DNA of 64,000 bases from Candidatus Onthoplasma sp. (GCA_045126575.1 JBGVOQ010000005.1:19-64018); one strand, 5' to 3'. Positions 43,325-47,876 are shown, counted from the first letter of the stretch. Numbers and translations are program-made. The notes: generated by a model from the sequence alone, not told the origin.

Positions 43325-43618
43325 TTAAATTATTGTAGGGTCTTGCTTTAAAATTTGCTCAATATCACCATATTCCCTTTTTAATTTAAGAAGGTCTTGT
43401 TTTAATTCACTATGTGACATTACAAAAATATTTGGATTGGCCAACATTAAAATATCTAGGTCATATTTAGGATAGCCATATTCAATTAACAGTTTGCAAT
43501 TATCAACAAATTCATTATAGGTTGTTACCTCTAGCATTGGCGCAAATGTTGACATACTATCAATTTCGGAATCAGAAATATTATATTTTTTGATAAAATT
43601 TATTATTTTAGAGTCCAT
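43325..43618 (-). CDS. hypothetical protein (97 aa), possibly a short mTERF-like repeat protein
   Basis: It overlaps the upstream gene's stop by 11 nt. Contains ..ANPNIFVMSHSELKQDLLKLK.., resembling the repeat unit of the upstream protein. Confidence 0.5.
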   Translation of the reverse strand: MDSKIINFIKKYNISDSEIDSMSTFAPMLEVTTYNEFVDNCKLLIEYGYPKYDLDILMLANPNIFVMSHSELKQDLLKLKREYGDIEQILKQDPTII

Positions 43619-44900
43619 TATTCACCCCGTGTTCATCTCTTATATATCGTTTTTCAGCACTATTAAAATCTTCAATTTCGCCTTCTTCCAAAACTGACAT
43701 CATTGAATATATTACATCCTCGGTAAGTTTATATTCCTTAATCAGGTCATCACTACTTACACCAAAATCTTTTTTAAATCTTTCTTCCCCTTCCAAAAGT
43801 TTTGCAACACTAACCTTTTTACCTTCATTTATCATAAAGCATAATCTTGCATAGGTTTTGTGCTGGCTAGTAGTAGTCCAACCTCTTTTAAGAATATCCT
43901 CCCTATCAGCCACTTGCCTTAAAATCAAATATCTAATTTTTAAAGTGTTTGCAGGAGCACTTAGCACCATAGGATTCTTTTTAATAATGAAAGTATCCAT
44001 ATGCATTTCCTGTAATTGCTTATGCTTTTGCTTAATATCATCTTCCGAATATGTTAATGTTGCAGGCAACTTTTTGACAACTTCAGCAAAATCCTGTTGA
44101 CTGAAATTAAATTCCTTTTTACAATTTTCTATTTTTTCCTTAATATTTTTATCTGACAAACTAAACACTGTTGGCATCTTGACAATAATCTCAGTAAACT
44201 CAGCATCACTTACACCAAGTTCTCGTTGATAAATTTTAGCTTTTTGTTTAACAGTTTCTATTGAAAATCCCAATAATGAAGGAAAGACCTTTATCATCTT
44301 TGCAAATTCTTTATCTTTTAAATTAAATTGTTGCTTATAAAACTCTGTAGTATCAGTAACATTTTCCTCCGATAAAGATAAAAGTGATGGCATCTTTTTA
44401 ATCATTTTGCTAAACTCATCTTTACTTAAGCCAAATTGTTTTTTGTAAAAATCAACCTTCTGTTTAACACTATCTAAGGAGTATGCTAACATTGAAGGCA
44501 AAAGTTTTATCATATCCTTTAGTTTGGATTGACTTATATCAAATTCTTTTTTATAGTATTCTAACTTTTCCTTCATAGTGTCTTCCGAATAACTTATTAC
44601 AGAAGGCAAATCTTTTAAAATTTCTATAAATTCATCTTTGGTTAACTTAAGTTCTCTTTGATAAAACCCTGCTTTATTTTTAACACTCGTTTCTTCATAG
44701 AATAAAATTGCTGGCATTGTTTTTACCATTTTATCAAAATCTGCTTTTGTTAATTTAAATTCTTTTTGGTAAAAGCTGATTCTATCTAAAATTTCCTGTT
44801 CTGATTTATCATGTCTTAAATGTTGTAAAACATCTGCCTTTTCTTTTAAATCCTTCTGTGTCCAGCCAAAATGTTTTACTAAAATATCTTTAATTTTCAT
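43608..44900 (-). CDS. tandem 36-aa helical-repeat protein (mTERF-like)
   Basis: 430 aa with seven exact-length 36-aa repeats (residues 48-299), consensus F.LsK.eF.kmiK.lPs.Ls.S.e.vK.K..fYkke, plus degenerate flanking repeats and a roughly 130-aa unique C-terminus. Confidence 0.6.
   Translation of the reverse strand: MKIKDILVKHFGWTQKDLKEKADVLQHLRHDKSEQEILDRISFYQKEFKLTKADFDKMVKTMPAILFYEETSVKNKAGFYQRELKLTKDEFIEILKDLPSVISYSEDTMKEKLEYYKKEFDISQSKLKDMIKLLPSMLAYSLDSVKQKVDFYKKQFGLSKDEFSKMIKKMPSLLSLSEENVTDTTEFYKQQFNLKDKEFAKMIKVFPSLLGFSIETVKQKAKIYQRELGVSDAEFTEIIVKMPTVFSLSDKNIKEKIENCKKEFNFSQQDFAEVVKKLPATLTYSEDDIKQKHKQLQEMHMDTFIIKKNPMVLSAPANTLKIRYLILRQVADREDILKRGWTTTSQHKTYARLCFMINEGKKVSVAKLLEGEERFKKDFGVSSDDLIKEYKLTEDVIYSMMSVLEEGEIEDFNSAEKRYIRDEHGVNNGL
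44004..44759 (-). repeat. seven tandem 108-nt coding repeats
   Basis: Deduced from the 36-aa periodicity of the translation. The repeats are diverged at nucleotide level. Confidence 0.8.
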
Positions 44901-44929: not shown

Positions 44930-46210
44930 TTATTTCTTCTTAAATTTATCTTTTTTACGCACCAAATTTTTTTCACGACCATTTCCACTTGGAATATAAT
45001 ACACATGGTCTTTCAAACTATTTGGCATATACTGCTGTTCAACATATCCGCCATAGTCGTGCGGATATTTGTATGGATTTGGATTTTCGGTGTCGTAATG
45101 ATAATTTTTAAGATATTCGGGAATTTTGTCGTCTGCCGACATTGTTGCATCCGTATTCGCCTTACCCATTGCTACATACACACTATTCGATTTTTCCGCC
45201 TCACACGCATATATAATTGCATGGCTCAAAGCGAGATTGCCCTCTGGCATACCTAAATTTTTAAGCGCATAATGAGCTGATATTGCAAGAAGTAGTGCAT
45301 TGCTATCAGCCATACCAATATCTTCGCTACAATGCGCAATCAATCTACGAGCAATTAGTAGCGGGTCACAACCTGCATTTATAAGTCTTTGGCTGTAATA
45401 CAATGCTGCATCTGTATCGCTTCCCCGTATACTTTTACAAAAGCAACTAAGCAGGTCGTAGTACATATTTTCATCAACGCTAATTGCCTTTTGTTGAATG
45501 CATTGCTCGGCTACTTTTTCGTCAATTAGCAATTTACCATCAGCAAAGGTTGTTGTCATAACTGCAAGTTCTAATCCGTTCATAGCATTACGCAAATCAC
45601 CGCTACTAGCATATGCAAGATGATTAAGCGCCTTAGGTGTAATTTCCACCTTAACCCTACCATAGCCATGTTCCTTATCGTTAATTGCATTAAGAAGTGC
45701 ATCCTTAATATCATTTAATTCTAGTGGCAAAAATTTAAATACTCTACACCTACTAACAATAGCCGGTGTCATACTCACATGTGGATTTTCGGTAGTCGAA
45801 CCAATAAATGTAATATACCCCTTTTCAACCGCCTCAAGCACGCAGTCACTTTGCGCCTTGCTCCAGCGGTGACATTCATCTAATATTAAGAATGTGGACT
45901 TACCATAAAGTTCAAAGTTTGACTTTGCTTCATCAATAATCTTTTTGGCATCCGCCACACCTGATGATACGGCATTAAGCTTTCTAACCTCATTATGCAT
46001 AGCATTGGCGATTATAAATGCCAATGTAGTTTTACCCACACCAGGCGGTCCATAAAATATACAACTACCTAATCTATTAATCTTAATTGCGCGCCTAAGC
46101 AATGTATCCTCACCTACAATATGCTTTTGACCAACAAACTCGTCAAGCGTTCTAGGCCTCATACGTTCTGCCAGTGGCGCATTCTTGTTATTCATATCAA
46201 ATATATTCAT
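44930..46210 (-). CDS. rarA: replication-associated recombination protein A (AAA+ ATPase RarA/MgsA)
   Basis: 426 aa: PLAERMRP..LDEFVGQ.H..G....LRR.I, Walker A GPPGVGKTT, Walker B LILDECHR, MgsA C-terminal domain. Confidence 0.9.
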   Translation of the reverse strand: MNIFDMNNKNAPLAERMRPRTLDEFVGQKHIVGEDTLLRRAIKINRLGSCIFYGPPGVGKTTLAFIIANAMHNEVRKLNAVSSGVADAKKIIDEAKSNFELYGKSTFLILDECHRWSKAQSDCVLEAVEKGYITFIGSTTENPHVSMTPAIVSRCRVFKFLPLELNDIKDALLNAINDKEHGYGRVKVEITPKALNHLAYASSGDLRNAMNGLELAVMTTTFADGKLLIDEKVAEQCIQQKAISVDENMYYDLLSCFCKSIRGSDTDAALYYSQRLINAGCDPLLIARRLIAHCSEDIGMADSNALLLAISAHYALKNLGMPEGNLALSHAIIYACEAEKSNSVYVAMGKANTDATMSADDKIPEYLKNYHYDTENPNPYKYPHDYGGYVEQQYMPNSLKDHVYYIPSGNGREKNLVRKKDKFKKK

Positions 46211-46295
46211 AATTACATTATATCATATATTCCCAATTTTGAAAATACTTTTTAATAAAGTTAATAAAAAAAGAAAAATTGAATTATCAACTTTT

Positions 46296-46499
46296 CTAAT
46301 CTTCCAACCCTAAAATATAGTCTGTACTAACTTTAAATAATTGTGCAATTTTGCATAATTGCTCTAGATTGCATTCCCTTTGACCCAATTCCCAATAGCT
46401 AATTGTACGTGGATTAATTTGCAAAAGATTAGCCAAGTCGTTCCTTGACAATTTTTTTTCACTTCGCAACTCCTTAAGTCTTTCAGCAAACTTTATCAT
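46296..46499 (-). CDS. XRE-family HTH transcriptional regulator (67 aa)
   Basis: MIKFAERLKELRSEKKLSRNDLANLLQINPRTISYWELGQREC.. is a canonical Cro/C1-type HTH. Confidence 0.8.
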   Translation of the reverse strand: MIKFAERLKELRSEKKLSRNDLANLLQINPRTISYWELGQRECNLEQLCKIAQLFKVSTDYILGLED

Positions 46500-46533
46500 T
46501 TATATAACATTAGAACAATATGTCCTCAAATAC

Positions 46534-46562
46534 TTGACTTATACCATTAGACTCTATATAAT
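46534..46562 (+). promoter_or_regulatory. sigma-A promoter for the 428-aa gene
   Basis: TTGACT (46534..46539), 17 nt, TATAAT (46557..46562). It sits in the 90-bp divergent spacer shared with the XRE gene. Confidence 0.6.
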
Positions 46563-46589
46563 TATAATTAGTTACAAAAAGGAGTATCT

Positions 46590-47876
46590 ATGGATAAATT
46601 ATTACAAGAATCAGAATCATATTTATTTTCGCTACGTTTTGGAGCATCTCTCTTCGGTAACGATGACCTATTAAAGACCATTGATGATTATCAAAAAAAA
46701 TTAACATCTCAAAGCAAATTTAACGAACAGATAAATTACAATCAAAATGACCTACTTAATCAAAATCTAAGATTATCTCAATCAGCCAAAGCATTAAAAT
46801 CAGCAATGCAAGCATATAGGGAGCATCCAGAAAATTCTTATAACCTAACTAATTTCCTATATCAACTACATAATTACAGAATGTTACAAGCAGATAAAGA
46901 AAAAATAGAACGAGTAGTTAAAGACCAGGAAATAGTTAGCGAAATGTTTGGAAATTTTACAACCGATAAACAAGTAAAAAAGGGATCCAAAGTAGTTATG
47001 GAATATAAATCAAGCCAAGAGTTACTTGATGAGCGAAATGACCGCCTTGCGATGCTTAATCAAATGCATGTTAATGGAGATATCAGTGATGCAGAGTTTG
47101 CTAAAAGTGTTGTAGCTGTTAGACGTACATATGATCGTAATATCGAAACACAAACCGTTAGAGAGGTTAATGCAGAAGCTTTAGCCCATCAACAAGAAAA
47201 CACCGTTGGCGAAAAGCTTAAATCAAAAGCAAAAGGTATTTTTGCAAAGGTTGCAAAAGTATTTAAAATAGATGTTGAAAATGTTAAGGATGTTGAAGTT
47301 GCAAACGAACAAGACGATTTAAAGCGACAAATAATTGACCGCAATGCTGCTCAGGCATTGGGAAAGGCTGCTGATATATTGGCTCAAAACAATGATTTGT
47401 CCAAAGATGCCGTTATTGATGAAATCACAGAACTAACCAAAGATGGTGGCGAGATTATGAAATCGCAATCTAATGAAATAGATCTCACAAAAATTGCACA
47501 GGAAATATATAAAAACCAAATTCTTAGTGCAAAAACTGAGGGGGATAAAGAATATTATCGCAACAGAATTGTTAATTTTGGACAAGTTCTAGTTGCTAAT
47601 GGGAACGGTGAAATATCTGTAAATCGTAATTTGGAAAGTCAAAAACAAGAATTTAAAGCATATATGTGGAGAACATATGAGACCAAACAAGAATTTAAAG
47701 ATGGTATATCTGTTCCAATTGTAAGTTTTAAAGATGAAGCTATTGAAAAGTTTTATTGGGACACAATGCGTCAATTTGACCAAAATATAGCAAAAGCCAA
47801 TGAAATGCTCAATGTTCAGGACGTTGTTAAAGATATGACTGAGCAAAACCAAGCAAAAAAAGAAAATAGTCGCTAG
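46590..47876 (+). CDS. hypothetical protein (428 aa, predicted mostly helical)
   Basis: ORF with an AAAGGAG RBS. Rich in Q/N/K/E. No family recognised. Confidence 0.55.
   Translation: MDKLLQESESYLFSLRFGASLFGNDDLLKTIDDYQKKLTSQSKFNEQINYNQNDLLNQNLRLSQSAKALKSAMQAYREHPENSYNLTNFLYQLHNYRMLQADKEKIERVVKDQEIVSEMFGNFTTDKQVKKGSKVVMEYKSSQELLDERNDRLAMLNQMHVNGDISDAEFAKSVVAVRRTYDRNIETQTVREVNAEALAHQQENTVGEKLKSKAKGIFAKVAKVFKIDVENVKDVEVANEQDDLKRQIIDRNAAQALGKAADILAQNNDLSKDAVIDEITELTKDGGEIMKSQSNEIDLTKIAQEIYKNQILSAKTEGDKEYYRNRIVNFGQVLVANGNGEISVNRNLESQKQEFKAYMWRTYETKQEFKDGISVPIVSFKDEAIEKFYWDTMRQFDQNIAKANEMLNVQDVVKDMTEQNQAKKENSR

Follow-up and report, generated by a model that had tools for sequence, protein, structure and literature searches.

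In much of the mTERF literature on plants and animals, the family is still said to be absent from prokaryotes (e.g. PMC12977773). In 2024, prokaryotic mTERF-like tandem-repeat proteins, named pTERF, were described from metagenome-assembled genomes of gut Clostridia and Bacillota (Nucleic Acids Res 2024, PMC11417379), with 3-11 units reported in the family. pTERF1 (MBQ3414883.1), which has a 35-aa period, was found to bind ACTNNNAGTC with a Kd of 1.87 nM, while pTERF2 binds a different motif, and both tested pTERFs bind double-stranded DNA sequence-specifically with nanomolar affinity (PMC11417379). That paper makes no mention of operons, neighbour genes or genomic context, so the partner gene reported below appears to be undescribed there.

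Gene layout and family assignment

The window, that is the whole stretch of 64,000 nucleotides analysed here, is contig 5 (64 kb) of a Clostridia-type genome of 1.06 Mb, which is assembled in 29 contigs and is 96.6% complete. The locus contains the following features:

43325..43618, minus strand: small acidic gene, predicted mini-mTERF partner, 97 aa, pI 4.6 (ORF, orthologues, Pfam mTERF matches)
43608..44900, minus strand: large gene, predicted mTERF/pTERF type, 430 aa, pI 8.5 (ORF, Pfam PF02536, AlphaFold2, Foldseek, dN/dS)
44930..46210, minus strand: rarA/mgsA, AAA+ recombination protein (ORF; Pfam families of the orthologue at the related loci L061/L062)
46217..46245, minus strand: promoter-like site TTTTCA-17-TGnTATAAT, 5' of rarA (consensus match only)

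The 97-aa ORF was located at 43325-43618, downstream of the 430-aa ORF on the same strand and with 11 nt common to both, just as the original prediction had described it. Shine-Dalgarno-like sequences were found before both genes, GGGAG about 8 nt 5' of the ATG of the large ORF and GGGGTG 4 nt 5' of the ATG of the small one. rarA ends 29 nt upstream of the large gene, and the order rarA, large, small and then rubrerythrin is operon-like. No terminator-like site was found between rarA and the pair, nor any before rubrerythrin has ended. rarA and the large and small genes may therefore plausibly be transcribed together, and from this layout rarA is probably the first gene of the transcription unit that holds the pair. 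The flanking genes are rarA/mgsA, rubrerythrin, formate-tetrahydrofolate ligase (fhs) and an XRE regulator. Further upstream of rarA, at window positions 46296-47876, a divergent XRE gene (67 aa) is accompanied by a 428/435-aa orphan; the close relative L062 has the same arrangement (L062:26-1627), which therefore appears to be stable local gene order, not a recent insertion.

No shift in GC content was seen around the pair, and an mTERF scan of the whole genome recovered the same locus. One related protein has been deposited as 'Christensenellales bacterium'. The eukaryotic reputation of the family is all that speaks for an artefact, either contaminating eukaryotic DNA or a repeat present by chance in a non-coding frame. 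The gene has bacterial genes on either side in a single contig, does not differ from them in GC, shows Shine-Dalgarno sites and has intact orthologues under purifying selection in dozens of bacterial assemblies; this refutes an artefact, whose probability we consider practically negligible.

Against the Pfam mTERF family (PF02536) the 430-aa protein scored 145.8 bits (cut-off 23.1; E=1.9e-42) over three stretches, and the mTERF resemblance noticed from the sequence was thereby borne out at the profile level. NCBIfam contained no meaningful match for this protein. Through phmmer comparison with PDB sequences we obtained mTERF proteins only, namely MTERF3 (3M66) at 3.1e-15, MTERF1 at about 2e-7, Tetrahymena mS93 and MTERF4. 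AlphaFold2 gave a pLDDT of 72 from the single sequence, and a pLDDT of 89.3 with a pTM of 0.73 when the 16-sequence family alignment was used. When these two models were compared with PDB by Foldseek, ranks 1-17 were all mTERF-family structures, including DNA-bound MTERF1, the comparison that had been proposed. The TM score was 0.74 to MTERF3 (3M66, target-normalised) and 0.58-0.62 to DNA-bound MTERF1; mS93 and MTERF4-NSUN4 were also matched, and designed left-handed alpha/alpha toroids came after the mTERF structures.

An unrelated helical class (TPR, HEAT or PPR) had been named as the outcome that would speak against the prediction. It did not appear, and a TPR/PPR/HEAT assignment is ruled out, with no such Pfam family at E<=10 and none among the Foldseek matches; the sole TPR-named Pfam match at E<=10 was 'Nucleoprot-TPR' (E=0.046 over 34 residues). 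The profile searches and the predicted models place this bacterial 430-aa protein in the mTERF superfamily. mTERF proteins are usually nuclear-encoded and organelle-targeted; here the gene is on a bacterial chromosome and the protein has no N-terminal extension, and organelle targeting is a feature of the habitat and not of the fold.

The 430-aa orthologues at L062:3023-4315 and L063:1302-2594 have no precomputed Pfam hit in the public collection, though the family reaches about 146 bits against PF02536. mTERF proteins of this type may therefore be under-counted in precomputed surveys.

Repeat architecture of the 430-aa protein

The protein was divided into four parts:

44796..44900, minus strand: N-terminal cap, aa 1-35, with a conserved 'FGWT' helix region (16-member alignment; three short helices in the model)
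44040..44795, minus strand: seven tandem 36-aa mTERF units, aa 36-287 (period analysis, unit table, DSSP)
43881..44039, minus strand: degenerate terminal mTERF motifs, aa 288-340, NPMVLSAPANTLKIRYLILRQV (family alignments)
43611..43880, minus strand: family-specific C-terminal helical domain, aa 341-430 (alignments; pLDDT 83-96 with alignment)

The motif prolines are residues 63, 99, 135, 171, 207, 243 and 279, and their spacing is always 36. Self-comparison with BLOSUM62 gave +436 at period 36 and negative values at all other periods from 25 to 49. The seven units are thus exactly 36 residues long, as had been predicted; the term 'exact' holds for their length only, pairwise identity among them being 19-53% (mean 35%). 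Tandem Repeats Finder saw no 108-nt repeat at the DNA level, and this absence, together with the divergence of the units, indicates an old array that was not recently amplified.

The predicted consensus was recognised in the units. Unit position 28 is always a proline, after which comes S/A-x-L-x-Y/L-S, and DSSP on the AlphaFold2 model assigned three helices to each unit, a long, a medium and a short one of about 14, 10 and 5 residues. This agrees with the three-helix unit of about 30-36 aa, with its proline and hydrophobic residues, that had been suggested. The most conserved block of the family is composed of the terminal motifs NPxxLxxPxNxLKxRYLILR (P310, P316, N318 and LKxRYLILR), and the C-terminal domain is marked in family alignments by the signature TSQxKTYAR ... 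FxKxxGVxSxxLxxKY. With a pI of 8.5, the large protein carries a net charge of only +4, a point against the DNA binding proposed below.

Unlike the old and diverged array of the window, some large orthologues (L005, L009, L023, L024) contain near-identical consecutive units, for example NNKSVLEKVDFYKSNFSLSNNEFNKIFKSFPVILGL repeated. Other large orthologues have a 41-42-aa unit, and both the number of units and the period vary within the family.

The small partner, distribution and evolution

The segment ANPNIFVMSHSELKQDLLKLK, quoted in the original prediction as a similar unit, is present in the 97-aa ORF. A profile of the partner aligned to aa 250-339 of the large protein, that is the last regular unit and the terminal motifs (hhalign 89%, E=2e-6), and 12 of 13 partner orthologues matched Pfam mTERF at E<=1 (best 3e-6); the small protein can therefore be called mTERF-like as well. 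The orthologues have 92-99 aa (86 aa by the shortest start) and end in LKxxP(F/T)xI. All 13 partners are acidic, with pI 4.05-5.03, and the large proteins have a median pI of 8.7.

At about 16 of 20 loci the gene directly downstream of the large one is the partner: 14 of these were detected automatically, and G037 and G096, the latter with a diverged copy, make up the rest. The distance between the two genes ranges from -11 to +46 nt. All-against-all comparison of 20 neighbourhoods of 15 kb revealed the partner as the only gene family consistently beside the large gene; beyond it no conserved neighbourhood was found in this set, and the adjacency of rarA is kept in the closest relatives only. 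The partner family comprised only 33 clusters, nearly all unannotated, in a collection of 5.8 billion proteins.

Several variants of the arrangement were observed. Two large mTERF genes in tandem followed by one mini-partner were revealed at L040 (G074:C1:209452-211793) and L049 (G096:C45:1440-4060), and the tandem array of G096 lies directly downstream of fusA-tuf. The genome G1119 (2.8 Mb), from another family of the phylum, encodes at L054:7066-9123 a large protein of 441 aa whose 35-aa units (KGFADKQIIKMWY...) are almost identical; close behind its gene come first an unrelated ORF of 83 aa and then a mini-mTERF of 154 aa that ends in an acidic tail (DEDE), so the pairing of a large and a mini protein recurs outside the family of the window. 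A second subfamily of about 534-549 aa occurs in the same bacterial family as the window (L019:433-2061 in G011, L021:622-2271 in G125 and L022:1138-2742 in G066) and has no separate partner gene. The extreme C-terminus of the L019 protein (aa 454-523) aligned with the mini-partner (hhalign 73%, E=3e-5), a weak hint that the partner may be fused into this subfamily of about 540 aa, though the same score also fits generic terminal-motif similarity.

In the same GTDB family, whose genomes have about 0.8-1.3 Mb, an mTERF match was found in 28 of 151 genomes and 20 of 58 genera, and in none of the four other species of the same genus. A 301-genome sample of the order contained three genomes with a match, all from this family and none from other families. 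Among 399 scored genomes of the class there were three including that of the window (two above the cut-off), and the 391-genome sample of the phylum contained five, again including that of the window (three above the cut-off). Fourteen control genomes gave no mTERF match above the cut-off. Within the order, class and phylum sampled, mTERF genes are near-confined to one family and occur almost nowhere else. A related-locus search with a 6-sequence alignment returned three loci only.

An exhaustive HMMER search of 1.84 billion representatives gave 1900 relatives at E<=1e-3, 47 of them at E<=1e-30. The bacterial C-terminal domain was present in 57 of the best 150 of these 1900; these 57 are AT-rich in composition, and their repeat periods were 36 aa (37 proteins), 41 aa (11) and 35 aa (3). 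An example of a 35-aa-period relative with the C-terminal domain of the large protein is P0146 (E=3e-23). The other 93 of the best 150 are for the most part longer and GC-richer in composition; they have extended N-termini and give full-length matches to Pfam mTERF. By these sequence features they look eukaryotic, the library itself carrying no taxonomy, and the C-terminal domain is absent from the long eukaryote-like representatives among the best 150. Such eukaryote-like relatives (E down to about 1e-36) could bear on the question whether mTERF genes passed between bacteria and eukaryotes.

The exact 430-aa sequence is absent from a collection of 15 billion proteins, where the closest full-length cluster representative found is 39-47% identical. 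Orthologues with 78% identity to the 430-aa protein are known on short metagenome contigs.

The order rarA-large-small(-rubrerythrin) is common to three other assemblies. Between the window and L062, identity was 97% for RarA, 97% for rubrerythrin, 78% for the large protein and 74% for the small one; for L061 the corresponding values were 94%, 94%, 47% and 68%, and the large protein there has 354 aa instead of 430, two units fewer. The dN/dS ratios against L062 were 0.097 (large), 0.136 (small), 0.020 (rarA), 0.068 (rubrerythrin) and 0.067 (fhs), and are rough since synonymous sites are near saturation. The dN of the pair was 4-8 times that of rarA and rubrerythrin in the same comparison. With a dN/dS near 0.1 and this raised dN, the pair is considered functional but fast-evolving. 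Differences between close orthologues are concentrated at unit positions 1-7, 10-11, 18-19 and 36, and positions 9, 13-14, 16, 20, 27-28 and 31-32 are unchanged.

In G106, which belongs to the same genus, rubrerythrin directly follows rarA and the pair is absent between them, indicating that the pair was gained or lost at this exact site. Alignment of the spacers for insertion scars (small-rubrerythrin of the window with rarA-rubrerythrin of G106) was uninformative because of the AT-rich DNA. At L061 (L061:5334-7074, GCA_045637825.1) two extra genes lie between the mini-partner and rubrerythrin, which encode a protein of 370 aa that matched no Pfam family and one of 212 aa with an HD domain; neither gene is present in the window.

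This pattern might suggest a conflict-type or accessory module, spread horizontally, which would control mobile DNA or act as a strain-specific regulator and whose fast divergence would follow changing targets. The patchy presence, the G106 junction, the low identity of the large protein beside a well-kept RarA, the change in repeat number and the clustering of differences at unit positions 1-7 and 10-11 are all consistent with it. However, no tblastn match was found in 50,697 phage records, and a phage origin was rejected; so was a defence system, as PADLOC gave only a weak match to the coiled-coil region of LmuB (23.6 bits) and a marginal one to AbiEi, both judged probably compositional. The PHROGs matches were all weak and all of unknown function, no nuclease, integrase or defence neighbours were seen in the neighbourhoods compared, and the overall dN/dS of about 0.1 is not above 1. 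We regard such a module as quite improbable.

Proposed function and comparison with known mTERF proteins

We propose that the pair probably forms a basic dsDNA-binding solenoid with an acidic partner subunit, which acts in gene regulation. The DNA ligand, the complex of large and small protein and the regulatory role are inferred from fold homology, charge, gene pairing and the pTERF experiments. The N-terminal cap, the seven units, the terminal motifs and the C-terminal domain would together form a superhelical solenoid with the basic pI given above. By analogy with MTERF1 and the two tested pTERFs, this solenoid would hold double-stranded DNA along its groove, with a preference for certain sequences, and may regulate gene expression, for example as a roadblock, a terminator or a repressor. 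The 97-aa gene, which appears translationally coupled, would encode an acidic mini-mTERF of two motifs, the obligate companion of the large genes. Most likely this would not bind nucleic acid itself but attach to the large protein, either as a cap or as a regulatory subunit.

We might speculate further on a two-subunit switch, in which the mini-mTERF would cap the solenoid or fill its groove and so gate DNA binding, and the fast-changing positions of helix 1 (unit positions 1-7 and 10-11) would retarget the large protein between strains. This extension is doubtful. If true, the lineage-restricted pair would be a naturally reprogrammable regulator, of a kind undescribed for any mTERF.

The main rival to DNA binding, since MTERF3 is the best match, is a role on RNA. 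MTERF3, MTERF4 and mS93 act on rRNA and the ribosome, and MTERF3 has a role both in the mitoribosome and in transcription repression. The 430-aa protein might likewise be a factor whose solenoid binds rRNA or a ribosomal intermediate, with the small partner as bound subunit in the way that NSUN4 is for MTERF4. That MTERF3 ranks first in both the sequence comparison (3e-15) and the structure comparison (TM 0.74) is consistent with this, as are the matches to the mS93 and MTERF4-NSUN4 assemblies and the position of some relatives next to fusA-tuf (G096), infC-rplT (G081, G037) or rpsB (G063). However, these neighbours lack conservation, and a genome of 1 Mb holds many translation genes in any case. 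The two pTERFs, so far the only bacterial relatives to be assayed, bind dsDNA with nanomolar affinity, and a core ribosome factor would hardly be expected in only about 19% of the genomes of its family. We therefore consider a ribosomal role unlikely.

Some plant mTERFs, such as Zm-mTERF4 and mTERF15, are cofactors for the splicing of group II introns and organelle RNA. This precedent in the family is all that points to a similar splicing role here. The group II intron model RF00029 was not found in the 96.6%-complete genome, while control genomes do match it; a splicing cofactor is therefore disfavoured, and we consider it very improbable.

The preferred reading, DNA binding by the large protein with the small one bound to it, can be compared with the described systems. 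MTERF1 (3MVA, 3N6S), a mitochondrial transcription terminator on DNA, resembles the 430-aa protein in repeat fold and superhelix, with Foldseek E values of about 1e-7 to 1e-8 over some 330-400 aligned columns and a sequence E value of 2e-7. In contrast, the repeats of MTERF1 are irregular in length, the protein is organelle-targeted, and it has neither a mini-partner gene nor the bacterial C-terminal domain. Its stacking residues F243 and Y288, identified from mutant chains, align to Ser172 and Thr216 of the 430-aa protein, so base flipping in the style of MTERF1 is unlikely here. MTERF3/MTERFD1 (3M66) is the best match in both sequence and structure, but is a eukaryotic organellar protein with 270 resolved residues and with fewer and irregular motifs. 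In MTERF4-NSUN4 (4FP9, 4FZV), which was also matched by Foldseek, an mTERF solenoid holds a tightly bound partner protein; NSUN4 is a methyltransferase, whereas the putative partner here is a 97-aa acidic mini-mTERF.

With the pTERFs the 430-aa protein shares a source in bacterial gut metagenome-assembled genomes, contiguous tandem three-helix units (seven regular ones here) and an AlphaFold solenoid like MTERF1. pTERF1 differs in its 35-aa period and is said to be without the canonical proline/hydrophobic signature, whereas the 430-aa protein has a 36-aa period, an invariant proline and a strong Pfam match. From the shared features, and from the 35-aa-period relatives that carry its C-terminal domain, the protein appears to be of pTERF type. 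The locus would thus be a further example of these rare bacterial mTERF-like proteins, described only recently (2024), and at the same time a clean canonical bacterial mTERF. The mini-partner, the lineage distribution and the evolutionary rates are additions to the pTERF description: a conserved and apparently translationally coupled acidic mini-mTERF; confinement to one family of gut Clostridia with genomes of about 1 Mb, where presence varies from genus to genus and also among the species of one genus; and protein evolution 4-8 times as fast as in neighbouring housekeeping genes, although both genes are under purifying selection. The pair offers a tractable two-protein system in which to study how an mTERF solenoid chooses its target, and what role it has in a cell without organelles.
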